A stretch of DNA of 64,000 bases from positions 36,782-100,781 of the forward strand of contig JACPEV010000011.1 of NCBI GenBank assembly GCA_016183325.1, written 5' to 3'. The position numbers and the translations under genes were made by a program. This stretch comes from Candidatus Curtissbacteria bacterium. Lineage in GTDB: Bacteria; Patescibacteriota; Microgenomatia; Curtissbacterales; GWA2-41-24. Under the pieces are notes generated by a model. That model was not told the origin of the DNA and made no database searches. It worked only from the letters and a program-made list of their open reading frames with translations. Positions 7,239-53,552 of the stretch are shown here, one piece after another; within the stretch, counting starts at the first letter, position 1, and each line of letters opens with the position of its first letter.

Positions 7239-7267
7239 CGGTCTAAGTATATACCAACTAACTGTTT

Positions 7268-8225: not shown

Positions 8226-8283
8226 GTTCAATTTGTTGTATATCAGCTCTTCGCCTGATATATCAGAGGAGCTCCTCAGCTGC

Positions 8284-8308: not shown

Positions 8309-8329
8309 TATAATATTGAATGTTGATTT

Positions 8330-8402
8330 GGAGGTCGTAGCTCAATGGCAGAGCAGCAGCTTGTGGAGCTGCGGGTTGGGGGTTCAATTCCCCTCGGCCT
8401 CC
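8330..8402 (+). tRNA. tRNA-His (anticodon GTG) with encoded G-1
   Basis: An extra 5' G pairs with the discriminator C. Anticodon stem GCAGC/GCTGC with loop TTGTGGA. Confidence 0.85.
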
Positions 8403-8410
8403 CCTATTGA

Positions 8411-9781: not shown

Positions 9782-9788
9782 TTTGCTT

Positions 9789-10004
9789 TTAGATGATAAC
9801 TAATACGGTGGAGATGATAAAGAAAAGAGTTGCCAGAATTACCGTCAGATAAACAAAAAGTTTTTCTACTCCTCTTTTCGATCTATAAAAGCCACCTTCA
9901 CCCCCGAAAGTTGCAGAGAGACCTGAACCTTTAGCCTGAAGTAGAATTATGACCATAAGAAGGGTAGAGACGATTATTTGGATTATCAGTAGGAAATTTT
10001 TCAC
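9789..10004 (-). CDS. secG: Preprotein translocase subunit SecG
   Basis: 71 aa. LLQAKGSGLSATFGGEGGFYRSKRG flanked by hydrophobic segments, the SecG pattern. Confidence 0.75.
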   Translation of the reverse strand: MKNFLLIIQIIVSTLLMVIILLQAKGSGLSATFGGEGGFYRSKRGVEKLFVYLTVILATLFFIISTVLVII

Positions 10005-37954: not shown

Positions 37955-38092
37955 TGATGATAGACGGTAGAAAATAGATGGTAGATATAGATAATAGAAA
38001 ATAGATGGTAGAAGGTTGATATTCTATCTTCAAACTTCTATCATCAAAATCCATTATCTAGCTTCAACCGTCTACCATCAAACGTCAGATCT
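37955..38092. promoter_or_regulatory. Palindromically arranged GGTAGA/GATAGA iteron array upstream of dinB (direct half ~37958-38015, inverted half ~38023-38090)
   Basis: GATGATAGAC GGTAGAA AATAGAT GGTAGAT ... ATAGATGGTAGAAGG / ...TCTATCTTC...TTCTATCATC...CCGTCTACCATC. Shares the AGATGGTAGAAGGT core with 34028-34077. Confidence 0.55.
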
Positions 38093-38096
38093 TAAT

Positions 38097-39518
38097 ATGA
38101 ATCGCGTAATTCTCCATGTTGATTTAAATAGTTTTTTTGCGACCGCTGAGCAGCAGGCAAATCCGGTTTTGCGCGGTAAACCGGTAGGTATTACCAAAGC
38201 GGTTGGGCGTACTTGCATCATCGCGGCTTCAGTTGAGGCTAAACGTTGGGGAGTAACTACCGGTAGTAACGTTTATGATGCCAGAAAACTATGTCCACAA
38301 ATTATTTTGATACCTGCTGATTTTGATAAGTATGCGGATATTTCCATGCGTTTTATTGAAATTTGCAAAACATATTCGCCGCTTTGCGAAGTATTTTCTT
38401 TGGACGAATGTTTTATTGATGTAACGGAAACTGAAAAATTCTGGCATAACGTTTTTAATATTGCTTTTGAGATTAAAGATAGGCTGAGATCTGAGGTTGG
38501 TGAACGGATGACTGTATCTTGCGGAGTTTCCCACAACAGGCTTCTTGCCAAACTTGCTTCTTCGCAAATTAAACCGGACGGGCTTTTTTGGATAACTCGC
38601 GACAATGCAATTTCAACTTTAGATAAGTCGGATTTAACGGATGTGTGCGGTCTGGGATTTGCTCTAAATCGTCGTTTGCGAGATTTAGGCATTGATAGTT
38701 TTCCTAAGCTAAGATCAAAGTCACTGGTATTTTTGCATAAACATTTTGGGCCGTTCTGGTCAAAGCATCTTTATAATATCGCACGCGGAATTGATGAATC
38801 ACCGGTTGTGCCGACGGACGAAATACCTGATGCCAAAAGCGTTGGCAGAACTTACACAACACATAGGGACTTAACAAATAAAGATGAAGTTTTGCAGTTG
38901 ATGCGAAATCTGTGTGAAGAAACGACTGCTAAAGCTCGCATGATGGGTCTTGCGGGCAGATATGTAGGATTGACGTTAAGAGGATCGAGTCTTGAAACTA
39001 AATCCGAATACCAAAAATCGTTTTTCGAAGAAAACGGGACTCAATCCGAAACAAATTCTAATGTTCAAAATTCTAAATCCAAAACAGTTTCTAATTTAGG
39101 TAATTTGGATTTTGATATTGTTTCGAATTTTGAGATTCGTGCTTCGAATTTATACCGAGGAGAGCTTAGTTTTTATGGGCATCGGACATTAAAAAACTAT
39201 ATAGATGATGGGAAACGACTTTTTGATATATGCTTAGCAATTTGTAAAGAATGGTCTGTTTTTGCCGCAAAACCAAATGTGCGTTTTTGCGGAGTGACTT
39301 TGGGAATGCTTACTGAAGTGCGCTTTTTAACAACTCCCCTATTTTCTGCTGACAGACGGCGTCAAGACTTAGTAAAAACTATTGATCAGATCAACCGGAG
39401 ATTTGGCGATTATACTGTTTACCCTGGACAACTTCTGGGAATGCCGATTATTCGACCTGAGGTTAACGGCTACTTTGGCGACAAAGCCTACAGGCTTAAC
39501 TTTGTACCTCACGGGTAA
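38097..39518 (+). CDS. dinB: Y-family DNA polymerase (DinB/Pol IV-like) with extended C-terminus
   Basis: MNRVILHVDLNSFFATAEQQANP...SLDECFIDVTE catalytic motifs. I chose the ATG at 38097 over the upstream listed start, which lies inside the iteron array. Confidence 0.85.
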   Translation: MNRVILHVDLNSFFATAEQQANPVLRGKPVGITKAVGRTCIIAASVEAKRWGVTTGSNVYDARKLCPQIILIPADFDKYADISMRFIEICKTYSPLCEVFSLDECFIDVTETEKFWHNVFNIAFEIKDRLRSEVGERMTVSCGVSHNRLLAKLASSQIKPDGLFWITRDNAISTLDKSDLTDVCGLGFALNRRLRDLGIDSFPKLRSKSLVFLHKHFGPFWSKHLYNIARGIDESPVVPTDEIPDAKSVGRTYTTHRDLTNKDEVLQLMRNLCEETTAKARMMGLAGRYVGLTLRGSSLETKSEYQKSFFEENGTQSETNSNVQNSKSKTVSNLGNLDFDIVSNFEIRASNLYRGELSFYGHRTLKNYIDDGKRLFDICLAICKEWSVFAAKPNVRFCGVTLGMLTEVRFLTTPLFSADRRRQDLVKTIDQINRRFGDYTVYPGQLLGMPIIRPEVNGYFGDKAYRLNFVPHG

Positions 39519-40760: not shown

Positions 40761-40801
40761 ACATTAAATTATACCCAAAAAAATGAGAGAATTCTGAAGG
40801 G

Positions 40802-40818
40802 TGGCCCTACGGGGAGTC
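40802..40818 (-). repeat. 17-bp copy of the tRNA-Glu 3' end (GACTCCCCGTAGGGCCA), an att-like direct repeat
   Basis: Exact match to 41180-41196 inside the tRNA-Glu gene. The 361 bp between the two copies contain only a GIY-YIG gene. Confidence 0.8.
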
Positions 40819-40885
40819 TACACTTCGCTCGAAATAGTTTTTTCGAGCTTCGAGTAGTTTATATTCCCTTGAACCATATTCTTCC

Positions 40886-41143
40886 CTAAAGTTTCTTTAG
40901 AGATTTAAGAAAATGTTTATACATAAAAGCAACTCCTGATCCTGATTTTAAGTATTTTTCAAAACCCAAAGCGTCAGCTTTCTCAACGAACGAGGAATAG
41001 TGCACAAGTTTGTAATTCAGGTTAGATTTTGTCGACTGAACTTTACCTGATAGATGTCTTTGGATACGTTTTCTTAAATCTGGAGTGTAACCTATGTAAT
41101 ATCGATTTGTAATTTCGTTAAATAAAATGTAAACGTAATACAT
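40886..41143 (-). CDS. Small GIY-YIG nuclease, YhbQ/UPF0213-like (85 aa)
   Basis: YYVYILFNEITNRYYIGYTPDLRKRIQRHLSGK (GIY...YIG, R, H..G) and the downstream E/K-rich helix. Confidence 0.8.
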   Translation of the reverse strand: MYYVYILFNEITNRYYIGYTPDLRKRIQRHLSGKVQSTKSNLNYKLVHYSSFVEKADALGFEKYLKSGSGVAFMYKHFLKSLKKL

Positions 41144-41179
41144 TAGGGGTTTACTATCCGAAACTTTAGTGAAGGATAG

Positions 41180-41251
41180 TGGCCCTACGGGGAGTCGAAC
41201 CCCGCTTTGGACCTTGAAAGAGTCCCGTCCTAACCGATAGACGATAGGGCC
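41180..41251 (-). tRNA. tRNA-Glu (anticodon TTC)
   Basis: Reverse complement folds as GGCCCTA acceptor, anticodon stem GGACT/GGTCC, loop CTTTCAA, T-loop TTCGACT. Confidence 0.85.
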
Positions 41252-42106: not shown

Positions 42107-42168
42107 GGGGGTATAGCTCAATTTAGTTAGATCCGGCGGTGCCGGACTTTGACGAGTGAACTCTAGTT
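42107..42168 (+). other. tRNA-like pseudo-element 1: a tRNA 5' half (GGGGGTATAGCTCAATTTAGTTAGA) with the D-stem/anticodon-stem replaced by hairpin TCCGGCGGTGCCGGA, followed by an anticodon-loop-like CTTTGAC
   Basis: Cannot fold as a cloverleaf. Shares the hairpin insertion with element 2. Confidence 0.45.
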
Positions 42169-42185
42169 TTTAGTTTTTGACAAAT

Positions 42186-42240
42186 GGCCCGCTAGCTCAA
42201 TGGTAGATCCGGCGAAGCCGGACTTTTAAGCGATTGGTTC
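42186..42240 (+). other. tRNA-like pseudo-element 2: a copy of tRNA-Lys nt 1-23 plus 34-52, with the central 8 nt replaced by hairpin TCCGGCGAAGCCGGA; it abuts the GIY-YIG start codon
   Basis: GGCCCGCTAGCTCAATGGTAGA-[hairpin]-CTTTTAAGCGATTGGTT matches the intact tRNA-Lys at 42489 except for the replaced core. Confidence 0.6.
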
Positions 42241-42498
42241 ATGTATACTGTCTACGTAATTAAAAGTGAATCGACGGGCAAAATATATATTGGTCAAACA
42301 GCAGTTAAAGTAACAAGATTAAAAAGGCACAATAAGGAGCTGCCTTATAATCCAAAAGGATTTACAGCAAAGAATGTAGGGCCGTGGAGAATTGTTTACG
42401 AAGAAACTTTTGAGACAAGAACAGAAGCATTAAAAAAAGAAAAATATTTAAAATCACACGTGGGACGCGATTACATCAGAAAAACATTGGCCCGCTAG
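42241..42498 (+). CDS. Small GIY-YIG nuclease, YhbQ/UPF0213-like (85 aa); its stop codon lies inside the 5' end of tRNA-Lys
   Basis: MYTVYVIKSESTGKIYIGQTAVKVTRLKRHN... The stop TAG comes from GGCCCGC-TAG-CTC of the tRNA. Confidence 0.8.
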   Translation: MYTVYVIKSESTGKIYIGQTAVKVTRLKRHNKELPYNPKGFTAKNVGPWRIVYEETFETRTEALKKEKYLKSHVGRDYIRKTLAR

Positions 42499-42560
42499 CT
42501 CAATGGTAGAGCAATCGCCTTTTAAGCGATTGGTTACAGGTTCGATCCCTGTGCGGGTCA
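42489..42560 (+). tRNA. tRNA-Lys (anticodon TTT)
   Basis: Acceptor GGCCCGC/GCGGGTC, anticodon stem ATCGC/GCGAT, loop CTTTTAA, T-loop TTCGATC. Confidence 0.85.
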
Positions 42561-42572
42561 CTCTTCGACTCG

Positions 42573-42594
42573 CCCTGAGAGTAATCGAAGGGCT
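42573..42594 (+). repeat. 22-bp hairpin-containing direct repeat CCCTGAGAGTAATCGAAGGGCT, upstream flank of the third GIY-YIG gene
   Basis: Counterpart CCCTGAGTTTATCGAAGGGCT at 42947-42967, immediately after the gene. Confidence 0.6.
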
Positions 42595-42661
42595 CGCTCA
42601 GAGTAAACTCGAGTTGAAGAACCCTGAGCGAATTATAATGTTGAGAGAATCGAAACATTAA

Positions 42662-42934
42662 ATGAGTCGAAGGGCTAATGTATCTTGGTACGTATATATA
42701 GCTAAAGCAAAAACTGGCAGATATTACACAGGTATAACCACAAGTCCAGATAAAAGAATTATTAAACATAACTCCGGGAAGGGTTTAAAGTTTGCCATAG
42801 AGCAAGGCCCATTTGAATTGGTCTATGTCTCAGAAGCATTTCCAAATAAGTCAGAAGCAAGAAAACGAGAAATTCAAATTAAAGGCTGGTCGAGAGAAAA
42901 GAAATTAAAACTAATAAGCGGCGAGTGGAAATAA
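42662..42934 (+). CDS. Small GIY-YIG nuclease, YhbQ/UPF0213-like (90 aa)
   Basis: WYVYIAKAKTGRYYTGITTSPDKRIIKHNSGKGLKFA...LVYVSEAFPNKSEARKREIQIKGWSREKK closely follows the YhbQ pattern. Confidence 0.8.
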   Translation: MSRRANVSWYVYIAKAKTGRYYTGITTSPDKRIIKHNSGKGLKFAIEQGPFELVYVSEAFPNKSEARKREIQIKGWSREKKLKLISGEWK

Positions 42935-43064
42935 AATTGAAGTTTACCCTGAGTTTATCGAAGGGCTGAAAGCGTTCCAGTACCCTTTGCCCCAACTATA
43001 TCTTTAACTTCGCTTTTTAACAAATCTATGTGTAAATGGAATTTTAGCCACAAAAGGCATATAA

Positions 43065-43658
43065 TTGCCGACTATGACTCCCGATTTGCGTCCTAGTGAT
43101 AACAACGAGGACGATAAACCAACTACGAGAGAAGAAATTGCTTTTGTGATTTTAACCTGGTTACAAGAAAGCCCTTCAGAGGTAGTTGAGGCAGCTGATT
43201 TGATGATGTGGGTTAGCGAAAATCATGCTCTGGTAAAGCTCCGTGATAGATTAAGAGATGCTTACTTAAAAGTGGATGGAGTAGAAGTAAGTGATTGGTT
43301 TACTCGTGGAGTTTCTGCAGCTTTTATGTATTTCCATGAAGTAGGTCAGGATATTGATAAAACGGACATACCTGTAATCACTCAAGGCACAATAGACTCA
43401 TTTAGATCAGATGCGGGAGAGAGTCGCAGGCAAAGGATGATTGCCTCAGAGTTTCTACTGGGAGATGAGTTAGCTGCAGAAAGATTACGGAGAGTAAATA
43501 AGATTTACGACCAAACGGATAAAAATCTACTGTTAATTTTAATGGAAACAAGGCTTAGGCCGGAAAATAAAGCAGTTTCGGAAAAAGCCCTAAGGGCTTT
43601 TCTGGAAGGTGGAATAATTGTGAATAATCTATTTGATAAGCAAGTACAATCTGCTTAG
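43065..43658 (+). CDS. Hypothetical protein (197 aa), GC-richer than its surroundings
   Basis: No domain recognised; predicted helical. Confidence 0.4.
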   Translation: MPTMTPDLRPSDNNEDDKPTTREEIAFVILTWLQESPSEVVEAADLMMWVSENHALVKLRDRLRDAYLKVDGVEVSDWFTRGVSAAFMYFHEVGQDIDKTDIPVITQGTIDSFRSDAGESRRQRMIASEFLLGDELAAERLRRVNKIYDQTDKNLLLILMETRLRPENKAVSEKALRAFLEGGIIVNNLFDKQVQSA

Positions 43659-43849
43659 TTCAACGTCCGAGTAGGAGATAGTTTAGGTTTGAATTTTGAG
43701 ATAAAGCCAAATTTGTGTAAAGCGATTTTAGTCCACCGAACGCCTGGTTCCCTTTCGACAAGCTCAGTGCTTTAGCATTCCAATCCCTTCTTGTCCTCAG
43801 ATTTTCGAAGGGTGCCCCACTATCCATAAAAAGAAGATAATTGACGATT

Positions 43850-44284
43850 TTATTTAGAAGTAAATATTATCTTTTCTTCCGGTCTTCTTAACTCAATACC
43901 TTGGAATTGATCGAAAAATCCCTTTTGCCCCAGAATAGTTTGATTATGCGCCGAACTAAAATCCGCAAACGTTTCTATTGTCAAACTTTCAAAAAATATT
44001 TTTATTCCAAAATGACGATAGGCTTCAATTGGAGGCGCATCACCAATGCCTTTTATTCTTATAAGTGTCCCTTTTGTCAGATTTATACCCAACACTCTAC
44101 AAATATCTGCAGGAAATAAGTTGTAGTCTGATCCTGAATCAACTAACGCAGTCAATCTAATCATTTGTCCATGCTTATAATTCACTTGAACGTCTACTAG
44201 TGGCCTAAGAACTGTCGAGGGCTTACCTTTGGTATCTAAACCAGGCGACTCTTGATACCAGACGGTTATTTTTTTAGAAGTCAT
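43850..44284 (-). CDS. Retropepsin-like (clan AA) aspartic protease
   Basis: LTALVDSGSDYNLFP (D-S/T-G-A/S), with a second Gly-rich flap-like segment IKGIGD. Confidence 0.55.
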   Translation of the reverse strand: MTSKKITVWYQESPGLDTKGKPSTVLRPLVDVQVNYKHGQMIRLTALVDSGSDYNLFPADICRVLGINLTKGTLIRIKGIGDAPPIEAYRHFGIKIFFESLTIETFADFSSAHNQTILGQKGFFDQFQGIELRRPEEKIIFTSK

Positions 44285-44287
44285 AAA

Positions 44288-44473
44288 CTACGGAGAATAC
44301 GCAGTATCCGCCGGGGGTACTTTATAGAAAGTTGCCTTCTTCGCTTTTTGTTTGAGTTCATTCCACAATTTATTAAAGCTGCTTCCATGGGCAATTACTC
44401 TACTTTTGGAACGGTCAATCGCAACCCACTCATTGGCATATTTTGCCATATTCGCTATCCTTTTTCTCTTCAT
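44288..44473 (-). CDS. Small protein (61 aa) co-transcribed upstream of the retropepsin-like protease
   Basis: 3-nt gap to the downstream gene. ...YANEWVAIDRSKSRVIAHGSSFNKLWNEL. Confidence 0.4.
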   Translation of the reverse strand: MKRKRIANMAKYANEWVAIDRSKSRVIAHGSSFNKLWNELKQKAKKATFYKVPPADTAYSP

Positions 44474-44737
44474 GCAAAGATAATTATACTACTGATCGGA
44501 TTTTGTTCAAGTTGTCATACATATTTGTTGAACCGGATTGACACGTGTCTCTTTTTTGCAATCAAACGATTAATAAAGTAGACGTGCCAAGGTGAGTCAA
44601 ATGGAAAGTGGATTTTTAACCTTTTTTATCCTGCTACGTGTCTTCCTTCTTTTATGGGTGCAATCCCAAGAGGAGCGGGTACGGCGGACACCGCTTCAAT
44701 CCAAAAATCTTAAATATGTATATTCTAATATTAGCAA

Positions 44738-44766
44738 TTGATAAGCTTGGCAGTTTATGATATAAT
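44738..44766 (+). promoter_or_regulatory. Canonical σ70-like promoter TTGATA-N17-TATAAT for the GHKL operon
   Basis: -35 at 44738-44743, -10 at 44761-44766, ~28 nt before the first ATG at 44795. Confidence 0.55.
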
Positions 44767-44794
44767 AACTTCGATTTTTAGGGAAAATAAAAAA

Positions 44795-45010
44795 ATGTCA
44801 GAAACGCGCAGCGAAAAATTTAAAAGACTTGCGACTTATCGTACCAACATAGTGCTGGAAAAACTCCGTATTCTTGGAAACCTATCTAACAAAACAAACT
44901 ATGATTACACAGATGAAGAAGTACATAAGATATTTTCTGCTATAGATGATGGCCTTAAAAGAGTAAAGGCTAAGTTTAGTTTAACGCGTAAACAACACTT
45001 TACACTTTAA
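44795..45010 (+). CDS. Small protein (71 aa), first gene of the GHKL operon
   Basis: MSETRSEKFKRLATYRTNIVLEKLRILGNL.... I chose the ATG at 44795 over the track start at 44738, which overlaps the promoter. Confidence 0.45.
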   Translation: MSETRSEKFKRLATYRTNIVLEKLRILGNLSNKTNYDYTDEEVHKIFSAIDDGLKRVKAKFSLTRKQHFTL

Positions 45011-45013
45011 TCT

Positions 45014-46681
45014 ATGGAAGTTCTCGAGACTATTCCAATAAATATTAGGGACCAACATAACTTACTTAATCTTCTTGCTGAAAGCTATAAAAGCTTAAAT
45101 AAAGCTTTAATGGAGTATATAGATAATTCTTTTGATAGTGCAGATGACTATTACGATGATGTTTTAGGGAGGTATCAACGTGATGTTGCTATTATCATTA
45201 CCATCGATCGAGCAAATAATACAATATCAGTCCTTGATAATTGTAATGGCATGGACTTGGAAATTCTGAAGGGATTAGCTAATAGTATTAATGATTCAGA
45301 AAAACGTCGACGAGCGCAAAAGAGACCATGGGTTAATGGTCAATTCGGACTTGGAGCTCATGCTTATCGTTTTTTTGCTCAAAAGCTACGCGTAATTACC
45401 AAGAAAAAAAATTCATCTACTGGTGCAATCTCTATTGATCGTGATGAGCCCGATGCGAAACTTATTAAACCATACAAATCTATATCGAATGATAGTGGTA
45501 CTTTTGTTGAGCTCTCGGATATCGATCGACAACAGATCAAGCGTTTAAATATCCAAGAACTCAAGAGAGACATTGAAACGTACTTCGAAATGCTACTTCG
45601 TAGAAATGTTGCAATAACGATCCGCGATGATGATCAAGTATCTGTATGCGAAAGTTTCGATTATGATCAACTCGAGGGGATTCCTATTCAAAAAGTAATA
45701 ACCAGTTGGCATCGTGGTTCGGCAACCCTTAGTTATCCTGATTCAGCTCGCGGAATTCATATAAATCTTAAAGTTTGCACAAAAAAAATGGACAGACCAC
45801 CGTTTTTTTCACGCAAAGGAAGACGAATTAATTACATTTCGCACATGGATTCATTTATTCGAAAAACCGAACACCGAAAGAAGGTCTGGGAGAACTACTA
45901 CCTAACAGGATATATTGAGGTTGGCGACAATTTAGAACCTATTATTACGCGTGACGATTTTATGGGTGGTAAAGGTAAAACAGCGACGCGCAGCGGTATT
46001 TATGAAGAAATTGTTAAAGTTGAAGATGATATTTACGCAGCAATTGAACAGGTCAATCGCGATAGAAGCGATGAAAATTTTCGTAAGCTAGCTTCAGTAT
46101 TGACAGAACTTTTGACAGAAATCACTAAAGAAGAAGATCTTAGAATTCGTCATGAAAATAAAGATGGTCAAAGAAACGAACAACCATGGGTTTCCGTGTC
46201 ACCGGATCCCGGGGAAGGTGAAGAATATGATATTAAGAGTAATGGTAATAATCGACCCGGAGATAAGCCAAAAATCAGCGTAGTAACTCCTGATTTAGAG
46301 GGAGAGCTGATGGGCCGTAAACGTGAGCGCGAAAAACAAGGTATTAGGATTGAGTTTAGTACGTTACCCGTCGTAGAGGGAGATCGCCGTACACATTTTG
46401 GCGACAGCGTTATTACTATTTTTACAAATCATCCGGATTTTTCAGAACGTAGAGGTCGTGGAGATCTTGAACAAATTATTATCAATCCCCGACTAGCCAA
46501 TTATTTAGCTGCAATAATCTCTTCAGAATATAAAGAAGTTTTTTACAATTTAAAGAAATTGGAACCTGATCGAAAAAAAGTTCTCGATGAACAGATAGAA
46601 TTTATTTTTCGTTTCGAGGAAAAACTGAAAAACTACATTAATCAACCGCTTGACGCCCTGGGAAACGTTACTCGCAGCTAA
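45014..46681 (+). CDS. GHKL (Bergerat-fold) ATPase of MutL/MORC/Hsp90 type with a ~350-aa C-terminal region of unknown function
   Basis: N-box LMEYIDNSFDSAD, G1 VLDNCNGMD, G2 GQFGLGAHAYRF, G3 SGTFVELSD. Confidence 0.7.
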   Translation: MEVLETIPINIRDQHNLLNLLAESYKSLNKALMEYIDNSFDSADDYYDDVLGRYQRDVAIIITIDRANNTISVLDNCNGMDLEILKGLANSINDSEKRRRAQKRPWVNGQFGLGAHAYRFFAQKLRVITKKKNSSTGAISIDRDEPDAKLIKPYKSISNDSGTFVELSDIDRQQIKRLNIQELKRDIETYFEMLLRRNVAITIRDDDQVSVCESFDYDQLEGIPIQKVITSWHRGSATLSYPDSARGIHINLKVCTKKMDRPPFFSRKGRRINYISHMDSFIRKTEHRKKVWENYYLTGYIEVGDNLEPIITRDDFMGGKGKTATRSGIYEEIVKVEDDIYAAIEQVNRDRSDENFRKLASVLTELLTEITKEEDLRIRHENKDGQRNEQPWVSVSPDPGEGEEYDIKSNGNNRPGDKPKISVVTPDLEGELMGRKREREKQGIRIEFSTLPVVEGDRRTHFGDSVITIFTNHPDFSERRGRGDLEQIIINPRLANYLAAIISSEYKEVFYNLKKLEPDRKKVLDEQIEFIFRFEEKLKNYINQPLDALGNVTRS

Positions 46682-46699
46682 TTATCTCTTCGGTATAAT

Positions 46700-47566
46700 A
46701 TGCTTATGCAGTCAGAAGATTTAATCACAATTATTGATAGTCTAGCCCCGATAAATAATGCTTTTCGAATGGAAAAAAAAGCAATTAAGAAAGTTGAGTA
46801 TGTCTGGGAACTTGGCTCGCTTCTTGATGAATATATTAAGAAATATAAATTAACATTAGATGAACTTCTTTACTCTATTTATGATCCACATGCTACGATC
46901 AAACATAGTAATATTACACGGTCATTAGGAAGTTATAGTTACAGGATTTTCCATTTTTTTAAAAAGAAAGAAGATGTTCGCAAAACAATTCCAAATTTAA
47001 AGTCGTATAACGTCTTTATAGAAGCATTGCCCTTACTGGTTAATATAAAGTATAAAACGCATGTTAATAGCGAAGATATTCTCGCTATGGTTAATTCACA
47101 AAAATCCACTCGGCAAACTATTAACAGATTAACTTTGATAAAACAATCAATTTTGCCAACAAGAAAACTTAGAATTCCTCCGGGTCTCATGTATACAGAG
47201 GAAAAAAGATTTTTAGTTTCAGTCATTAAATATATCCGAGGTTTATATGAAAAAAATGAGTCTATTTTCTCATTTAATAATTTGCAGTATGAGTTGCATA
47301 AAGAGAAGTATCGTGAGCAACTTGTCTTAATTTTAATGGCATTAGCAAGTGACTCGTTTATGAATAAGGTAAAATCGTATAAGGAAAATGAAGTTAATAA
47401 AAACTTAAGACGCTTGTTCCAAATTGCTATAAGTAATAATGAAAAAAGATCACGATTTCGAAGATGGGTTTTGTCAGCAAACGAACTGCTGTGGTTGGCT
47501 GAGGCAATTCATGCCTTAGGTGATGATAACGACTTTCATTTTTTCAAAAAGAAGCTAGAGAAATAA
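46700..47566 (+). CDS. Hypothetical protein (288 aa), third gene of the GHKL operon
   Basis: 18 nt after the ATPase gene. Lys-rich and helical, no recognised domain. Confidence 0.5.
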   Translation: MLMQSEDLITIIDSLAPINNAFRMEKKAIKKVEYVWELGSLLDEYIKKYKLTLDELLYSIYDPHATIKHSNITRSLGSYSYRIFHFFKKKEDVRKTIPNLKSYNVFIEALPLLVNIKYKTHVNSEDILAMVNSQKSTRQTINRLTLIKQSILPTRKLRIPPGLMYTEEKRFLVSVIKYIRGLYEKNESIFSFNNLQYELHKEKYREQLVLILMALASDSFMNKVKSYKENEVNKNLRRLFQIAISNNEKRSRFRRWVLSANELLWLAEAIHALGDDNDFHFFKKKLEK

Positions 47567-47590
47567 TTTTTTGCCTATAACCATTGGGTA

Positions 47591-47642
47591 GCAGTGATTG
47601 GATTATATATCTATACAATTCCAATGCGCAACTGCTTTTTTT
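47591..47642 (+). terminator. Intrinsic terminator closing the GHKL operon
   Basis: Stem GCAGTGATTGGA...TCCAATGCGCAACTGC followed by TTTTTTT. Confidence 0.7.
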
Positions 47643-47721
47643 ACCTCAACTTTTTAAGAACTATTTGAAAGAAGGCTCCAAATCAGGTAAAACTATGATT
47701 TCCAAAAAGGAGGTAATCTAA

Positions 47722-47865
47722 ATGAAGTTTACTCAAATTGCAGTTGCTGGCGTTGGTAGAAGCAATGATAACTCTGCTTATAGTGTTGCGTTGTTTGCCT
47801 TAAACGAAAATGGCAAATTATTTTTTGTTGTGCTAAACTCCGCCTGGCTAAATTCATTCAATCGT
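47722..47865 (+). CDS. Small ORF (47 aa) with a strong SD (AAAGGAGG, 8 nt upstream), ending 7 nt before the next gene
   Basis: MKFTQIAVAGVGRSNDNSAYSVALFALNENGKLFFVVLNSAWLNSFNR. Confidence 0.3.
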
Positions 47866-47872
47866 TAAAATT

Positions 47873-48853
47873 ATGAATCGACCTGAAGAACTATTACCTA
47901 TCAACGAACAAAATTCGTCGAATGTACCTTCTCCACGAGAAGCAGAGATGCTTTTGAATTCCAAAGAAAGTATCCCTTTTGATTTACGACGTAGAATGAT
48001 ATTTGATCTTATCACCAATATTCCTCAAACTCCCAATTCTGAAACCGAAAGTATTAATAATCTTTTATCCGACATAAAAAATCTCCTTCGAAGTGAACCT
48101 TTAACCGATCAACAAGCGGGAATCCTGACGAGGTGGATGTTCTATGCAAAATATCCTTATAAGGAAATGTCTGAACGGGGAAAAGATGTATCACTGGAAG
48201 AAATTGTAGAACTGAGAGTTGGTAACTGGGAAACAATTGAGCAAATCGCAAATGCGACCTTTGAACGGAAAGACGCCTGGGAAAAAGCAACCAAAGAAGC
48301 ACTGAACGGAGATGGTTACGTGACAGTATATCGAGGTATGAGTATTTCTCCAAATGACGTTCCAGGAATTTACCAAACCGGAATTATTCCGCCCGGAATT
48401 TGGAGATATAAAACATTCGACCAGATTATTTTCAGAAAACTGCAATATTCTCTTAAGAGTTCCTCCGACAGTAGCTATATCTCCACCTGGAACCGCAGCG
48501 ACCAAGCGAAAATAAGCCGCACGCTAGATCTTCCATTTTCGAAAGGCGGGTTGCTAAGAAATCACTGGTTTGTGGATCCTGATGCAGGTTTATTGGGAGG
48601 CGTGGATACTCCAGACTCTTTGGCTATGAGCACTACTAACTTAGAATACATAGATTTGGTGCGTAGATACGGCAACTATGTCGTAGAAATAAAACTACCG
48701 GCAAATCGGTTAGTGCGAAGATGGGAAGAGCGAGAAACTGTTGATTATTCCGTTTTATTTTTTATTGAGCCTCAAGCAATTTCCGGAATTTATGCGATAA
48801 AAGATGAAAGGCCATTAAAAGAGCAACTAAATAAACCAATTGAGAGGCCATAA
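47873..48853 (+). CDS. Hypothetical protein (326 aa) with loose R-S-E ADP-ribosyltransferase-like motif spacing (VYRG ... AMSTTNLEY ... acidic cluster)
   Basis: Motif-level resemblance only; no confident family assignment. Confidence 0.4.
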   Translation: MNRPEELLPINEQNSSNVPSPREAEMLLNSKESIPFDLRRRMIFDLITNIPQTPNSETESINNLLSDIKNLLRSEPLTDQQAGILTRWMFYAKYPYKEMSERGKDVSLEEIVELRVGNWETIEQIANATFERKDAWEKATKEALNGDGYVTVYRGMSISPNDVPGIYQTGIIPPGIWRYKTFDQIIFRKLQYSLKSSSDSSYISTWNRSDQAKISRTLDLPFSKGGLLRNHWFVDPDAGLLGGVDTPDSLAMSTTNLEYIDLVRRYGNYVVEIKLPANRLVRRWEERETVDYSVLFFIEPQAISGIYAIKDERPLKEQLNKPIERP

Positions 48854-48892
48854 TACCTCTCTCCGTTTGAGGTAGGGTTGGCATGTGTGTTT

Positions 48893-50722
48893 TTACTTTT
48901 GTCCCTGGGAGATTTTGCGTCTTTCTTCCAACTTATCGAGGATGATTTTTCTGATGCGGATGTTTTTTGGGGTGACTTCCACTAACTCTTCGTCGTTAAT
49001 GTATTCCAAAGCATCTTCCAGGTCCATTTTAGTTACCGCATTAAGGCTGGCAGAGACGTCTTCGCCTTTGCTTCTCATGTTTGTCAGGTGTTTTTCTTTG
49101 CAGACATTGACTGGAATGTCTTCCAATCTCGCGTTTTTGCCAATGACCTGGCCTTTATAAACCTGCTGTCCAGGACCGACAAATATGACTCCTCTTTCCT
49201 GAGCGTTAACAAGTCCGTAGGTTTTTGTTACGCCGCTTTCATGAGCAACTAATGAACCATTTGCGCGTGAATATGCGGTAGGGGTTTCAGGCCTGTATTC
49301 CAAAAACAAAGTGTTTATGACACCCGTGCCTTTTGTATCAGTAATCAGTTCGCTTCTGTAACCGAAAAGCTCGCGGGTTGAAATGATAAATTCAAAAAAT
49401 GCGGTGTTTTCTTCCGTCTTCATATCCACAAGTTCCGCATGTCTTGCACCCATTTTTTGCATGACTACACCTGAGTATTCTTGCGGTACCTCAACAAAAA
49501 CCTCCTCGTAGGGGGCAAGTTTTTGTCCGTTTGCACCGATTTTTGTGATCACTTGAGGCCGGCCAACTTGGAATTCATAGTCTTCCCGACGCATTCGCTC
49601 GATAAAAATCGCCAAATGCAGCTCCCCGCGGCCGGAAACTATCCATTCACCTTTATCCGTGTCTTCTACCTTCAGGGCAACATCAGTTTCGAGCTCTTTA
49701 TACAATCTGCTTCGCAGCTGACTTGAGGTTTTAAATTTGCCTTCTTTGCCGGCATGCGGTGAACTGTTTACGGCAAAGGTCATTCTTATTGTCGGTTCTT
49801 CGACTCGGAGCGGGGGGAGTGCTATGGGGTTTTTGACATCGGCGATGGTTTCGCCAATTGTGACGTCGGAAATGCCCGAAACGGCTATAATGTCACCGGC
49901 TTCGGCTTCTTTAATATCAACTCTTTCAAGTCCGACAAAAGTTGAGATCGAGCTTACAAGTTTCTTTTGCTGCTCACCCGTGGTTTTAATATGCATTACT
50001 TCTTGGCCAAAGTTTATCTTCCCGCTTTGGATTTTGCCGATTCCAATTCTTCCTTTGTGGGTGTCATAAGTGATATTGGAAATTAACATTTGAAGGGGCT
50101 TATCCGGGTCTGCCGCAGGCGGGGGAACCTCTTTCAAGATCGTTTCAAAGACCGGAGAAATATCGGTCATGTCCTCGATTTTTGGAGTTAAACCTGCTTT
50201 TCCATCTTTGGCTACTGTGTAGATTGTCGGGAAGAAAGCCGTAGTTTCGTCCGCTCCCAGTTCCACAAACAAATCAAATATTCTGTTTCTCGCAAAATCG
50301 ATTCTGGCATTTTGCTTGTCGACTTTGTTGATCACTACGATTATTTTGTGCTTCAGCTTCAAGGCCTGCTTCAGCACGAATCTGGTCTGGGGCATCGGAC
50401 CTTCCTGCGCGTCTACCAAAAGAAGACTGCCGTCTACCATGGAAAGGACTCTTTCCACTTCCCCGCCAAAGTCAGCATGTCCAGGGGTATCTATGATATT
50501 GATCTTGGTACCTTTCCAGATCACTGAAGCATTCTTGGAAAAGATGGTAATACCCCTCTCCTTTTCGAGCTCGTTCGTATCCATTATAAGATTTCCGCTA
50601 GCAAGTTCCTTTTTGAGTTCGGTTTTAGACTGGCGCAAAAGAGCGTCTACCAAGGTAGTCTTACCATGGTCAACGTGGGCGATAATGGCGATGTTTCTTA
50701 GGTTTATCATTTTAGGTGTCAA
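48893..50722 (-). CDS. typA: Translational GTPase TypA/BipA
   Basis: AIIAHVDHGKTTLVD, DTPGHADF, NKVD. The likelier start is the MINLRN Met at 50710. Confidence 0.95.
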   Translation of the reverse strand: MTPKMINLRNIAIIAHVDHGKTTLVDALLRQSKTELKKELASGNLIMDTNELEKERGITIFSKNASVIWKGTKINIIDTPGHADFGGEVERVLSMVDGSLLLVDAQEGPMPQTRFVLKQALKLKHKIIVVINKVDKQNARIDFARNRIFDLFVELGADETTAFFPTIYTVAKDGKAGLTPKIEDMTDISPVFETILKEVPPPAADPDKPLQMLISNITYDTHKGRIGIGKIQSGKINFGQEVMHIKTTGEQQKKLVSSISTFVGLERVDIKEAEAGDIIAVSGISDVTIGETIADVKNPIALPPLRVEEPTIRMTFAVNSSPHAGKEGKFKTSSQLRSRLYKELETDVALKVEDTDKGEWIVSGRGELHLAIFIERMRREDYEFQVGRPQVITKIGANGQKLAPYEEVFVEVPQEYSGVVMQKMGARHAELVDMKTEENTAFFEFIISTRELFGYRSELITDTKGTGVINTLFLEYRPETPTAYSRANGSLVAHESGVTKTYGLVNAQERGVIFVGPGQQVYKGQVIGKNARLEDIPVNVCKEKHLTNMRSKGEDVSASLNAVTKMDLEDALEYINDEELVEVTPKNIRIRKIILDKLEERRKISQGQK

Positions 50723-50998
50723 AAAACCGCCTTATTTGGCGGCCCTTGTGATTATATCATGTTTTAGCCCTTCGCCCTATAGTTTGACATTACCCATTTG
50801 GTCTGTTATACTGCCTTATATATTTAGCAGATTGAAGAAACAGATCTGCTTAATTTGAATAGTTTTTGATTAGACAAGATAAAGATAGTCTACGAATAAA
50901 GTTAATTTAGTATCTTTTCCCCTACTCATAAATACAACTTCGTAATTAAGTAGATTCGTTTCTTTAATTGGGTGTTCCATTTGCACTCTTCTTTAGTT

Positions 50999-51080
50999 GT
51001 CATTCTGAACTTGTCTGATTTTATCGACCCGAATGGGTTTCAGAATCTACAACAAGATCCTGAATTGAATTCAGGATGAC
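50999..51080. mobile_element. MITE-like palindromic element, copy 2 (GTCATTCTGAA ... TTCAGGATGAC; inner TTCAGAATC / GATCCTGAA)
   Basis: Same terminal and inner inverted-repeat design as copy 1, with degenerate termini. Sits in the typA / DEAD-box divergent spacer. Confidence 0.6.
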
Positions 51081-51125
51081 AGACAAGAGGTCTTTGGACA
51101 ATTAATTTGAGGAATCATTATTTCC

Positions 51126-52307
51126 ATGAGACGAAGATTTAGATCGAGAGGAAACTTCAGAAGAAGGTACTACTCTGTCCAAAAAACCAACCAGGACCTT
51201 ATGTGGGCAATTACTGCCGGTAGAAGTCAAAACATGCCAAGCGCGGAGGTGGCACCTACCGTATATATTCCCAATCATAAGTTTGAAGATTTTCCTGTTT
51301 CTTCTCAAATTAAAAGAAACATAGCAAACAAAAAGTACGTCTCTCCGACGCCAATTCAAGATCAGGTAATTCCAGCAATTCTTGCAGGATCCGATATTAT
51401 CGGTGTTGCAAATACCGGAACTGGAAAAACAGCCGCGTTTCTGGTTCCTTTGATCGATAAAGTATTCAAAGACAAGTTCCAAAAAGTGCTTATCATTGCG
51501 CCAACCCGAGAGCTTGCTTGTCAAATAGACGGGGAATTGCGCGATTTTGCGAGTGGCCTTTCTATTGGCTCGGCACTTTGCATCGGCGGGACCAATATAT
51601 TCAGGCAGAGGAATCAGTTGTTACACAACCCAAATTTCGTGATCGGCACACCCGGAAGAATAAAGGATTTAATCAGACAAAGATGTTTAAACTTATCCCA
51701 ATTTAGAAATGTTGTACTAGACGAGGTTGATCGCATGGTAGATATCGGTTTTATTGACGATATTAAGTACTTTATTTCACTTTTGCCAGCCGATCGCCAA
51801 TCGCTTTTTTTCTCGGCGACAATCTCCGGGAAAGTTCGCGAAATTATACAAACGTTTGTTAAAAATCCAATTACAATTTCCGTGAAAGTAAGGGACGTGA
51901 TTGAAAATATTAAACAGGAAATTGTTAAAGTGTCTCAAGGGGAGCAGAAGGTAGACAAACTGCACGATTTATTGATTCAAGAAGGTTTCCATAAGGTACT
52001 TATCTTCGGCCGGACGAAAAGAGGTGTGCAAAGACTTACAAATGAGCTTTGCGAACGAGGTTTCAGGGCCGGAGTAATTCACGGGAATAAGAGTCAAAGC
52101 CAAAGACAGAAAACTTTGGAAATGTTTAAACGTAACCAAATTCGCATACTTCTGGCAACAGATGTTGCTTCACGCGGGCTTGATATTGACGACGTAAGTC
52201 ATGTTATTAATTACGACCTGCCGGCTTCTTACGATGATTATATACATAGGATAGGACGAACGGGCAGGGCAAATAAAACAGGCACTGCTTTGACATTTGT
52301 CGTATAA
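51126..52307 (+). CDS. DEAD-box ATP-dependent RNA helicase with Arg-rich N-terminus
   Basis: Q-motif PTPIQ, Walker A ANTGTGKT, DEVD, SAT, HGNKSQSQR, ATDVASRGLDI. Confidence 0.9.
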   Translation: MRRRFRSRGNFRRRYYSVQKTNQDLMWAITAGRSQNMPSAEVAPTVYIPNHKFEDFPVSSQIKRNIANKKYVSPTPIQDQVIPAILAGSDIIGVANTGTGKTAAFLVPLIDKVFKDKFQKVLIIAPTRELACQIDGELRDFASGLSIGSALCIGGTNIFRQRNQLLHNPNFVIGTPGRIKDLIRQRCLNLSQFRNVVLDEVDRMVDIGFIDDIKYFISLLPADRQSLFFSATISGKVREIIQTFVKNPITISVKVRDVIENIKQEIVKVSQGEQKVDKLHDLLIQEGFHKVLIFGRTKRGVQRLTNELCERGFRAGVIHGNKSQSQRQKTLEMFKRNQIRILLATDVASRGLDIDDVSHVINYDLPASYDDYIHRIGRTGRANKTGTALTFVV

Positions 52308-52736
52308 TTGCAAGTAAATTCAATGAAGGCTTTGCGCAAGAATATATATCTAGATATTGACGGAGTAATTTTAACCAGAGGCGTAACACCCGCACTTCAC
52401 TTGGATAAATTTCTAAAGTACATCTTAAGTAATTATTCTGTTTTCTGGCTGACGTCTAAATACCAAGGAGACAGTAGAAGGATAATTCAATATTTATCCC
52501 AATTTCTTCTTCCCGATACAATTGATTTGATTGGGCAGATTAAAGCAACCAGCTTTCGCTTAGACAAAACCGAGGCCATAGACTTTAGCAAGGACTTTTT
52601 CTGGATAGACAACGAACTTTTTGATTCGGAGAAAAATACATTAAGAAAACATAACTCATACGACTGCTGGATTGAACTGGATCTTATCAAAAATCCGAAC
52701 CAACTTCTCGATCTTGTTAATAGCAAACTAAACTGA
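52308..52736 (+). CDS. Hypothetical protein with HAD-like motif I (YLDIDGVIL)
   Basis: 142 aa. Only the DxDGV motif is recognised. Confidence 0.4.
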   Translation: MQVNSMKALRKNIYLDIDGVILTRGVTPALHLDKFLKYILSNYSVFWLTSKYQGDSRRIIQYLSQFLLPDTIDLIGQIKATSFRLDKTEAIDFSKDFFWIDNELFDSEKNTLRKHNSYDCWIELDLIKNPNQLLDLVNSKLN

Positions 52737-52821
52737 TAAATTTGAAAATTCAATAGAAGGTGGATAAGATTCTCGTTGAATTACTTGATGGCTTTTGTGA
52801 AAACAAGCTATAATTGGGTCG

Positions 52822-53076
52822 ATGGTTGAAAGATCTTCCCCCTGTCAACATTACTGGTTAATTGAACCACCTCAAGGTCCAACTTCACCTGGAGTGTGCA
52901 AACATTGTGGAGATAGCAAAACTTTTTTAAACAATCTTGATGGAGGATACAGAGATAGAGATGATTTGCTAAGTGATTCTACGGGGGCATTTGATACTCA
53001 AGATGCCCAGCAAAGGGCCCGCAGGCATATTACAAGGCTGTTCAGCGCAAGTAGATCCCAGCTTGGAGGTGATTGA
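52822..53076 (+). CDS. Small Cys-containing protein (84 aa), possible zinc ribbon
   Basis: PCQHYW...CKHCG. Confidence 0.3.
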   Translation: MVERSSPCQHYWLIEPPQGPTSPGVCKHCGDSKTFLNNLDGGYRDRDDLLSDSTGAFDTQDAQQRARRHITRLFSASRSQLGGD

Positions 53077-53079
53077 TCT

Positions 53080-53328
53080 TTGGCAAAAGTAACAATGTAC
53101 ACAACTAGAACTTGTCCCTTTTGCAAGATGCAAAAGGACTATTTGTCAAGTAAAAATATTTCCTACGATGAGGTTTTGGTTGATGAAAAACCGGAAGAAG
53201 CCCAAAAAATGATTGAGATTTCTGGGCAAATGGGTGTGCCGTTTACTGTTATTGATAAAGACAATGGACAGCGGGAAACGATTTTGGGATTTGATCAAAA
53301 GAGAATTGATGAAGCCCTGGGAATTTGA
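53080..53328 (+). CDS. Glutaredoxin/NrdH-like redoxin
   Basis: MYTTRTCPFCKMQKDYL (CPFC active site) and C-terminal GVPFTVID. Confidence 0.75.
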   Translation: MAKVTMYTTRTCPFCKMQKDYLSSKNISYDEVLVDEKPEEAQKMIEISGQMGVPFTVIDKDNGQRETILGFDQKRIDEALGI

Positions 53329-53339
53329 TCTTGGAAATT

Positions 53340-53550
53340 AGTTATTAGAAAGCTTGCTTCGAGCAAGTTCTCTTGCGAGAAGTGGAAAGTGGTATTGGAA
53401 ATCAGAAGTGGGAAATGGTTGAAAATGAATTTTCCATTTTCAATTTTCCACTTTCCATTACTGCTTTCAAACTTCCAAAAACCATTTTCAAAATTCATCC
53501 CTTATTTCTTCATACTTGATACTTAATACTTGATACTTAATACTTAAGAT
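53340..53550. repeat. Intergenic array: inverted GGAAAGTGG/GGAAATGG motif blocks (53380-53470) followed by a 4x ATACTTRAT tandem repeat (53508-53546)
   Basis: tggaaagtgg...gtgggaaatgg // ccattttcaattttccactttcca; then atacttgatacttaatacttgatacttaatactta. Confidence 0.6.
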
Positions 53551-53552
53551 AT

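Follow-up and report, generated by a model that had tools for sequence, protein, structure and literature searches.

An accessory mosaic between tRNA-Lys and typA in a Curtissbacteria genome carries a candidate anti-invader cassette built around a MORC-like ATPase

Between a tRNA-Lys/GIY-YIG cluster and typA in the genome of an uncultured Candidatus Curtissbacteria bacterium lies an AT-rich patch of about 6 kb with eight ORFs that lack a housekeeping assignment; the remainder of the 64-kb stretch of DNA that we analysed (the window) is housekeeping (DnaE, enolase, PPDK, UvrA/C, ExoVII, RNase HII). We consider it probable that this patch is an accessory mosaic at a tRNA-linked hot spot and that its 2.8-kb three-gene cassette encodes an ATP-driven clamp that restricts or silences invader DNA. 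The three-gene unit, organised around a MORC/MutL-like ATPase, looks like an undescribed anti-invader system, and on the best reading it is a new paraMORC-like, ATP-driven DNA-clamp module with a presumed role in defence. The gene inventory of the original prediction holds, since all eight ORFs are where it had placed them and none is housekeeping; only two of the eight proteins, of 61 aa (DUF5678) and 555 aa (HATPase_c_3), pass a curated family threshold. As judged from sequence, the accessory stretch is bounded by the 3′ end of tRNA-Lys (42561) and the typA stop codon (48893). The features of the region, in window coordinates, are:

42107..42239, + strand: two relic 5′ tRNA-Lys fragments (exact repeats D3, D5 and D9; alignment with the tRNA-Lys of the relative L086)
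42241..42498, + strand: GIY-YIG gene, 85 aa, bracketed by tRNA-Lys repeats (Pfam GIY-YIG 8.5e-12; repeats)
42489..42561, + strand: tRNA-Lys(UUU), left anchor of the extra DNA (ARAGORN; Rfam tRNA 70.8 bits)
42662..42934, + strand: third GIY-YIG gene, 90 aa (Pfam GIY-YIG 4.3e-18; sequence, pattern search)
43065..43658, + strand: module 1, orphan 197-aa protein, 194 aa if started at the ATG 43074 (ORF call)
43850..44284, - strand: module 2b, 144-aa protein, weakly retropepsin-like (DSG motif; sub-threshold profile matches)
44288..44473, - strand: module 2a, small protein of the DUF5678 family, 61 aa (53 aa in the gene call on L001; Pfam DUF5678 4.5e-7)
44738..44766, + strand: predicted near-consensus sigma-70-like promoter upstream of the cassette, TTGATA-17-TATAAT with TG extension (by consensus alone, 11 of 12 matches)
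44795..45010, + strand: cassette gene 1, conserved 71-aa small protein (homologs upstream of the GHKL gene elsewhere)
45014..46681, + strand: cassette gene 2, 555-aa GHKL+S5 (MORC/SMCHD1/MutL-like) ATPase (profile match; fold; motifs)
46706..47566, + strand: cassette gene 3, 286-aa all-alpha partner (HTH-like S-x-ITR-x-LG-x-Y motif)
47722..47868, + strand: module 4a, 48-aa ORF coupled to the 326-aa gene (sequence)
47873..48853, + strand: module 4b, 326-aa protein of a tiny family (alignment)
48893..50722, - strand: typA/bipA, right anchor (Pfam GTP_EFTU and BipA_C; 75% identical to Curtissbacteria TypA)

The accessory character of the stretch follows from alignment with L086, the only syntenic relative, a distant and rearranged one with a TypA 75% identical and typA inverted. 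Window and relative have six flanking genes in common at 43-75% identity, plus one weak match. The gene order of L086 is MscS-like (-, 224-895), tRNA-Lys (+, 1077-1150) and typA (+, from about 1167/1251) with no genes between, and its 10.5-kb contig carries no homolog of any of the eight island genes. The tRNA-Lys-typA junction is thus empty of island genes, and because tRNA-Lys directly abuts typA there, the stretch in the window is accessory. For the genes outside the cassette, loss in the L086 lineage is possible.

Base composition also sets the island apart, but towards AT, opposite to the GC enrichment that had been claimed by eye. Island GC is 0.369, whereas windows of equal size average 0.401 (sd 0.012); the island falls in the lowest 2%, and no other 5.8 kb of the window is richer in AT. 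By tetranucleotide distance it ranks in the top 2.6%, and GC3 is 0.28-0.34 in island genes against about 0.37 elsewhere. Codon log-likelihood of the island genes is unremarkable. As for the individual stretches described as GC-richer, 43.1-43.7 kb is at background (GC 0.393), only about 100 bp at 44.6-44.7 kb reach 0.455, and 41.3-42.0 kb is indeed elevated (0.434) but corresponds to a conserved MscS-like gene that lies beyond the island.

The cassette (44795-47575), alone among the modules in having a discernible logic, is an operon whose three genes are separated by 3 nt and about 20 nt. By its motifs the 555-aa protein belongs to the GHKL (Bergerat-fold) ATPase superfamily, whose hallmarks are the catalytic Glu and the Mg-binding Asn of motif I, a DxGxG motif II, a glycine-rich lid and the Thr of motif IV: across 34 homologs, down to 29% identity, E34, N38, D75, G79, G109 and G114 are invariant and G112 and T163 nearly so, and HATPase_c_3 scores 50.1 bits against a cut-off of 25. 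Directly after the GHKL domain comes an S5-fold transducer; the chain then continues with a long helix, a disordered linker that varies, and a C-terminal domain that is conserved. Structural inferences on the cassette draw on AlphaFold models (pTM 0.66 and 0.53), in which the closest matches of the ATPase are SMCHD1 and MORC2/3. Among solved structures the best match at the sequence level is the Hsp90/HtpG N-terminal domain (E 8e-10, residues 17-196); identity with Hsp90/HtpG was rejected, as NCBIfam NF003555 scores 26.9 bits against a cut-off of 371 and the middle and C-terminal parts are unrelated. Neither the 71-aa nor the 286-aa family has a Pfam or PDB relative, and the cassette genes encode no recognisable nuclease, helicase or methylase, so an effector is missing.

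Prokaryotic MORC/paraMORC GHKL+S5 ATPases belong to restriction-type conflict systems (Iyer, Abhiman & Aravind 2008, PMC2292703), and paraMORC3 is now classed as Shedu type I-D (VcSduA, PMC12137116). As in those systems, the 555-aa protein carries at its N terminus a GHKL domain whose ATP-binding motifs are intact, ahead of an S5-fold domain, and it shows a family-specific C-terminal extension and a sporadic, laterally mobile distribution in hot spots with other mobile and defence genes. In contrast to them, the operon has no SF2 helicase, restriction-fold nuclease, HNH, TIR, DUF4263 or methylase, and has instead two partner families without Pfam or PDB relatives; nor does it match the MzaB or Shedu-type GHKL models of PADLOC, the one proxy for the signature motifs of MORC and of paraMORC1-5. 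MutL offers a similar architecture, with its GHKL+S5 N-terminal module, disordered variable linker and conserved C-terminal domain, but its sequence similarity to the ATPase is limited to the GHKL superfamily level. MutL identity was rejected: Pfam and NCBIfam searches gave no MutL_C, endonuclease motif or MutL equivalog match, and no cassette examined adjoins mutS.

As a sharply bordered block, the three cassette genes recur jointly in many different neighbourhoods. DNA homology covers window positions 44852-47574 with L176 (80%), 45573-47580 with L175 (92%) and 44801-47565 with L163, and ends there. The gene immediately upstream of the GHKL gene encodes a homolog of the 71-aa protein in L163, L165, L166/167, L168, L176, L178 and L179, and all three genes are kept in L178, where the ATPase is only 29% identical. 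The cassette, or the ATPase-partner pair, was seen in about ten neighbourhoods, inspected by hand and not a statistical enrichment over the Patescibacteria background. They include OLD-TOPRIM with UvrD (Gabija-like), a HEPN Hypoth_Ymh protein and PycTM (PADLOC matches); large serine recombinases; DUF3800; Fic with DUF433; DUF4145; an inovirus-like Zot module on an IMG/VR contig; and DndBCDE, AIPR, IS21, an MzaB-like GHKL protein and an SBD-HNH protein, the Dnd and HNH genes adjoining the pair in two distant-clade loci only. On one side of the cassette in L176 (GreA) and L175 (PMT) there is nothing defence-like.

These observations are consistent with a scheme in which accessory DNA would have accumulated at the tRNA-linked hot spot as independent small modules, one of them a clamp. 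By analogy with MORC and MutL, ATP binding may dimerise the 555-aa ATPase into a DNA clamp; the 286-aa partner, and perhaps the 71-aa protein, would supply DNA or invader recognition or regulation; and the complex could restrict or silence phage or plasmid DNA, either by way of the conserved C-terminal domain of its ATPase or with the help of unlinked nucleases. A bolder version, which we offer tentatively and think unlikely as it stands, is that the cassette is a self-contained, Patescibacteria-centred immune system without a dedicated nuclease, moving as a 2.8-kb unit, in which the novel HTH partner would load an ATP-gated MORC/SMCHD1-like clamp that compacts or silences invading DNA. If true, such a nuclease-free silencing clamp would be a bacterial counterpart of eukaryotic MORC-type silencing.

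The cassette might instead serve itself or an element that carries it, through addiction (a toxin-antitoxin-like arrangement in which the 71-aa protein would be the antitoxin or a regulator), maintenance or partition, or anti-defence on integrative elements or inoviruses. Its adjacency to large serine recombinases and to the inovirus-like module fits such a role, as does its small first gene, which resembles toxin-antitoxin or regulator gene layouts. A mobile-element backbone is, however, absent from the window and from several other cassette contexts, a GC-rich clade keeps the ATPase-partner pair without the 71-aa gene, and searches of 50,697 phage and 72,556 plasmid records gave no match to the cassette; we regard a selfish role as rather unlikely. 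Less probable still, and in our view doubtful, is that these are lineage-specific chromosomal genes with a cellular role, the MORC-like ATPase and its HTH partner organising or repairing the nucleoid, for example. Many core genes of CPR genomes lack annotation, an effector nuclease could not be recognised, and the L163 cassette lies near recA/recX. Against this, the family is very sparse, with 56 and 86 cluster representatives in billions of proteins (roughly 86 being the 286-aa partner family). The cassette, moreover, is missing at the L086 syntenic site, occupies a different locus in every genome examined, adjoins recombinases, IS elements, the inovirus-like module and known defence genes, and is AT-rich.

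An ATP-driven clamp acting against invader DNA, the reading that we prefer, bears on a wider problem, the phage resistance of Patescibacteria (CPR), whose tiny genomes hold few recognised defence systems. The cassette is a compact, mobile three-gene module shared among Patescibacteria, with an ATPase engine like that of the eukaryotic MORC/SMCHD1 silencers and of MutL. As a candidate for a new immune mechanism it is concrete and cheap to test, and it offers a prokaryotic model of how MORC-type ATPases clamp DNA.

Rather than one acquired element, the island as a whole is a mosaic in which at least four independent modules can be told apart: the orphan 194-197-aa gene, the pair of DUF5678 and weakly retropepsin-like genes, the cassette, and the coupled 48-aa and 326-aa pair. 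That all of 43-48.9 kb is instead a single element integrated by way of tRNA-Lys, be it a degraded prophage, an ICE or a genomic island, is very improbable: its position directly downstream of tRNA-Lys, the relic tRNA fragments, which indicate repeated insertions at that locus, and its deviant composition would fit, but profile searches found no integrase, recombinase, transposase or phage structural match among the eight ORFs, the 3′ part of tRNA-Lys occurs once within the window with up to 3 mismatches allowed and so has no copy at the typA end and no att repeat, only the cassette is common to other contigs, with homology stopping at its ORF borders, a homolog of the 326-aa protein occurs in a different variable patch of Collierbacteria without the cassette, and the whole eight-gene block is absent among the contexts examined. 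Like tRNA-linked genomic (defence) islands, the stretch adjoins a tRNA gene, deviates in composition, is missing at the syntenic site of a relative and holds small conflict-type modules; unlike integrase-mediated ones, it is a mosaic with neither integrase nor tRNA-derived direct repeat at its far end. The description of a horizontally acquired defence or mobile island therefore stands as regards accessory DNA, deviant composition and a cassette found in defence- and mobile-rich neighbourhoods, and falls as regards a single acquired element and GC enrichment. Among the eight proteins only the 144-aa one matches known or candidate defence models in PADLOC-DB v2 (weakly PDC-M08B, and PDC-M52B), the cassette proteins matching no family there at E up to 1; 'defence' is therefore read from context.

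The genes outside the cassette are probably small conflict or addiction genes. The 197-aa protein has no family above noise in Pfam, NCBIfam, PHROGs or PADLOC, no PDB match, and no homolog among about 180 loci compared. A gap of 3 nt separates the DUF5678 gene (30 bits against a cut-off of 23.2) from the 144-aa gene downstream of it, and a promoter scan marks a promoter-like site for the pair at 44510-44483. The label 'retropepsin-like protease' given to the 144-aa protein is a weak one: a DSG motif, of the D-T/S-G catalytic type of clan AA retropepsin-like proteases, is present and PDC-M08B is matched (6.2e-6; PDC-M52B 1.2e-3), but Asp_protease_2 (E 0.013, 16.6 bits, cut-off 24.3) and TIGR03698 (E 0.095, 13 bits, cut-off 57) remain below threshold, and PDB sequence searches gave no match. 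With the small gene upstream of it, the 144-aa gene recalls gene B of the PADLOC candidate system PDC-M08, and also clan AA retropepsin-like proteases that come with a small partner protein; the pair differs in that the DUF5678 gene matches no PADLOC model and the protease-family scores fall short of curated thresholds. The short ORF reported as 47 aa with a strong Shine-Dalgarno sequence is present and counts 48 aa, with AAGGAGGT 7 nt upstream; it ends 4 nt before the 326-aa gene and has no homolog elsewhere among the roughly 180 loci. The 326-aa family numbers 7 proteins in 5.8 billion, and TVYR, (S/A)TT and IEP motifs are invariant in the alignment of 7 homologs. The protein was compared with the R-S-E ADP-ribosyltransferases, which have the ART fold, an aromatic-Arg, an STS motif and a catalytic Glu; its conserved motifs may recall these, and Pfam and PDB profile searches gave no match.

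The island itself is an ordinary phenomenon, and its value is as an entry point to the cassette and to the neighbouring GIY-YIG genes, which are tRNA-targeting mini-elements. The GIY-YIG genes beside the island are bracketed by duplicated tRNA segments. Of the two relics, 42107-42131 corresponds to the L086-type tRNA-Lys and 42185-42239 is identical to the resident one, and the hairpin TCCGGCGnnGCCGGA is present in each. The 85-aa GIY-YIG gene overlaps the intact tRNA-Lys with its 3′ end, and CCCTGAG..ATCGAAGGGCT repeats at 42573-42594 and 42948-42968 flank the third GIY-YIG gene.

The island, eight open reading frames (ORFs) lying between the tRNA-Lys/GIY-YIG cluster and typA (197, 144, 61, 71, 555, 286, 48 and 326 aa), was tested for accessory status against one relative, the distant and rearranged metagenomic contig L086 (TypA 75% identical). 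Seven flanking genes have homologs on this contig, six of them 43-75% identical and one matching weakly (25%); the island genes have none. The MscS-like gene (224-895, - strand), tRNA-Lys(UUU) (1077-1150, +) and typA (from ~1167/1251, +) are contiguous on L086, whereas 6.3 kb separates tRNA-Lys (42489-42561) from typA (48893-50722, inverted relative to L086) in the window, which places the extra DNA exactly at the tRNA-linked junction. L003 and L004, whose TypA proteins are the closest among GTDB species representatives (73-75%), have no synteny with the window in the flanks and so were of no help in locating the island borders; L083, a 92% relative, stops within typA and its reach does not extend to the island side. 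The genes on either flank are ordinary:

Left flank: DinB-like polymerase, CvpA/CAP protein, MscS-like membrane protein
Right flank: TypA/BipA, DEAD-box helicase, beta-CASP RNase

The window belongs to a genome of Candidatus Curtissbacteria (Patescibacteria/CPR), and its genes beyond 40.8-48.9 kb serve housekeeping functions, including DnaE, enolase, PPDK, UvrA/C, ExoVII and RNase HII. Its nearest TypA proteins are from Curtissbacteria, and proteins identical to the 555-aa, 286-aa and 326-aa products are named Curtissbacteria at NCBI, the latter two with HYU92 locus tags.

The gene inventory of the original prediction was right, with ORFs found at the positions assigned to them. Its description of the island as GC-richer had the direction reversed: GC averages 0.401 (sd 0.012) over equal-sized windows and the island, at 0.369, falls in their lowest 2%; its tetranucleotide profile ranks within the 2.6% that deviate most. 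Overall GC of the window is 0.401, and the AT-richest part of the island is the GHKL cassette described below (0.352). Among the stretches called GC-rich, the sole outlier (41.3-42.0 kb, 0.434) lies beyond the island and corresponds to the conserved MscS-like gene. The 320-bp gap at 44474-44795, which holds another of these stretches (44.6-44.7 kb), had no Rfam match in a structured RNA search and gave folding z-scores of -0.3 and +1.7, and a structured RNA there was rejected.

The cassette consists of three ORFs separated by gaps of 3 nt and ~20 nt, with a promoter-like site (44738-44766, near-consensus with an extended -10) ahead of the first:

44795-45010, + strand, 71-aa protein
45014-46681, + strand, 555-aa GHKL+S5 ATPase
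46706-47566, + strand, 286-aa partner

An AlphaFold model of the ATPase (pLDDT 80.8) places the GHKL and S5-type domains in residues 1 to ~335. Residues 337-382 form a long helix, after which come a variable linker modelled at low confidence and, at ~440-552, a C-terminal domain that is conserved. Sequence-level detection finds an Hsp90-type N-domain alone, and the scores for the HtpG, Topo VI-B and BbrUII models lie far under their cut-offs. In the alignment E34, N38, D75, G79, G109 and G111(F)-G114 never vary and T163 and G112 hardly do, so the GHKL site is expected to be active. Fold and motifs assign the cassette to the GHKL+S5 (MORC/paraMORC/MutL) kind. A PHROG profile of unknown function, phrog_6203 (644 positions), matches the GHKL N-domain at 1.4e-11, showing that phage-encoded relatives of this ATPase type exist; searches of cultured phage and plasmid collections with the ATPase and its distant homolog P0055 found no match. 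We rejected a PD-(D/E)xK reading of 'HPDF...SSEYKE' in the C-terminal domain, where the distant clade does not conserve E505 and both motifs fall on predicted helices, and a HEPN reading of the partner, from which the conserved Rx4-6H motif is absent.

Comparison with other loci shows that the cassette travels as a unit. The ATPase is rare, with only 56 homolog clusters among 5.8 billion proteins, nearly all ~555 aa long, and an exhaustive profile search of 1.84 billion proteins recovered just 86 representatives of the partner family. A partner homolog follows the ATPase in every context examined except that of the most distant homolog (L170), a 71-aa homolog precedes it in the AT-rich clade, and the three-gene order is kept even on an IMG/VR contig (L178) whose ATPase is 29% identical. 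DNA homology with the window spans 44852-47574 at L176 (80%), 45573-47580 at L175 (92%) and 44801-47565 at L163, and no DNA similarity to these three loci was detected outside those limits. The flanks differ at each locus compared; the neighbors of the cassette, or of the ATPase-partner pair, are as follows:

L176: DUF3800 / GreA
L175: unknown genes and a PMT glycosyltransferase
L163: MerR-DUF4325 / DUF3800, DUF433-Fic, in the recA-rpsI interval
L165: OLD-TOPRIM and UvrD (Gabija-like) / HEPN Hypoth_Ymh, PycTM
L166, L168: large serine recombinases
L179: DUF4145
L178 (IMGVR_UViG_3300025600_000123, 1-10581): complete divergent cassette beside an inovirus-like Zot/pIII module
L171, L172 (GC-rich clade, pair without the small gene): DndBCDE, AIPR, IS21, MzaB-like GHKL, SBD-HNH

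The inovirus-like module comprises a Zot-like ATPase, an 867-aa Laminin_G_3 protein and small pilin-like ORFs. In the GC-rich clade the pair directly adjoins the DndBCDE clusters (L171 4336-9497; L172 1129-10236), and on L171 it is followed by a second, MzaB-like GHKL protein and then a ScoMcrA-type SBD-HNH enzyme; this pair may be a phosphorothioate-linked variant. A Dnd/Pbe link for the cassette itself was rejected, as PbeABCD has no GHKL component and dnd genes are absent from the window.

The genomic context of the cassette points to an anti-invader role. Activity of this sort was put forward for the paraMORC radiation (PMC2292703) and has been demonstrated in the GHKL-Shedu protein VcSduA (PMC12137116). 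The cassette differs from those systems in being a unit without helicase, nuclease or methylase, and by the operon-partner criterion of described paraMORC systems it falls outside them. In PADLOC, neither the cassette proteins nor the distant ATPase homologs P0052, P0055 and P0056 have a match, and the cassette corresponds to no catalogued defence model. That it is instead a selfish module for addiction or for the maintenance of a mobile element seems unlikely to us, and a cellular function in the nucleoid or in repair is less probable still. By analogy with MORC, SMCHD1 and MutL, ATP binding would cause the GHKL domains to dimerise into a clamp, and the MutL-like linker and C-terminal domain would keep up a constitutive dimer. 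The HTH-like partner, possibly together with the 71-aa protein, would target or regulate this clamp on DNA. The effector step could fall to the conserved C-terminal domain or to unlinked nucleases, or it could be compaction or silencing that needs no nuclease.

It is highly improbable that the whole stretch is a single integrated element, since none of its eight ORFs matches an integrase or recombinase family and an att-site search found no second copy of the 3' part of tRNA-Lys anywhere in the window. A 21-nt pair at 42927/47712 (81% identical), considered as an att repeat, was judged to be chance. Decisive for a mosaic is that the middle three genes are a discrete unit. The family of the 326-aa protein has seven members, and the Collierbacteria homolog has no cassette beside it and occupies another variable patch, the rpsI-recA interval. 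The 197-aa, 144-aa, 61-aa and 48-aa genes have no homologs in the fetched loci. Given this discrete cassette, the separate 326-aa homolog and four further genes without homologs, the island is a patchwork of at least four modules, each inherited on its own. The prediction of an acquired defence or mobile island thus holds for its accessory nature and defence-like context; the island is, however, a mosaic without an integrase, and we infer its defence role. An island of this kind is in itself commonplace.

The rpsI-recA interval forms another variable hot spot in these CPR genomes (L163 6000-15200; L173 6900-10800), containing the GHKL cassette, DUF3800 and Fic/DUF433 at L163 and the 326-aa homolog, an SNase and a methyltransferase in Collierbacteria (L173).

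Curated family thresholds are passed by two of the eight island proteins, the 61-aa (DUF5678) and 555-aa (HATPase_c_3) products; NCBIfam, PHROGs and PADLOC searches of all eight added nothing decisive, and PDB sequence searches with the 197-aa, 326-aa, 144-aa, 71-aa and partner proteins returned noise level alone. The 144-aa protein, labeled retropepsin-like in the original prediction, has the DSG motif and a weak protease likeness (Asp_protease_2, E of just 0.013), and matches the PADLOC candidate PDC-M08B at 6e-6. The strong Shine-Dalgarno sequence ascribed to the 48-aa ORF is present (AAGGAGGT); this ORF stops 4 nt ahead of the 326-aa gene, and the two therefore form a coupled pair. Invariant in the 326-aa family (window 47873-48853) are TVYR (151-154), (S/A)TT (253-255) and I-E-P (298-300), a pattern that resembles the R-S-E motifs of ADP-ribosyltransferases, although Pfam and PDB profiles do not support this likeness.

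Three GIY-YIG genes adjoin the island, each between direct repeats, two of which are tRNA segments; their products share only 32-37% identity:

40886-41143, - strand, GIY-YIG gene (85 aa) between the tRNA-Glu repeats
41179-41251, - strand, tRNA-Glu, with its 3'-terminal 18 nt repeated exactly at 40801-40818, 378 bp away
42241-42498, GIY-YIG gene (85 aa) between exact copies of tRNA-Lys nt 1-23 and nt 31-47
42662-42934, third GIY-YIG gene, with flanking repeats CCCTGAG(A)GT(A/T)ATCGAAGGGCT within 42573-42968

The unit at 40801-41251 resembles a miniature element that has inserted at the 3' end of tRNA-Glu. Nucleotides 1-23 and 31-47 of tRNA-Lys are duplicated ~300 bp upstream, across a GIY-YIG ORF (window 42107-42561); another relic, at 42107-42131, corresponds to the 5' part of tRNA-Lys of the L086 type, and in both relics the hairpin TCCGGCGnnGCCGGA replaces the 5' strand of the anticodon stem. 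These repeats and relics point to serial insertion or replacement events at tRNA-Lys, consistent with an insertion hot spot at this locus. The GIY-YIG genes with tRNA repeats were sought in the relative L088 and not detected there. A 22-mer similar to the repeat of the third gene lies at 16000-16021 (- strand), distant from the GIY-YIG genes.

Two features of the flanking genes were also observed. In L083 (1-700; TypA 92% identical) the beta-CASP RNase gene begins ~590 bp upstream of typA, without the DEAD-box helicase and 142-aa genes that separate the two in the window (50722-53553). The DinB-like polymerase (38016-39518) is unusually long at 500 aa by the listed ORF, and its IMS_C match, stretched across residues 274-433, suggests a ~60-aa insertion rich in Ser, Asn and Lys.
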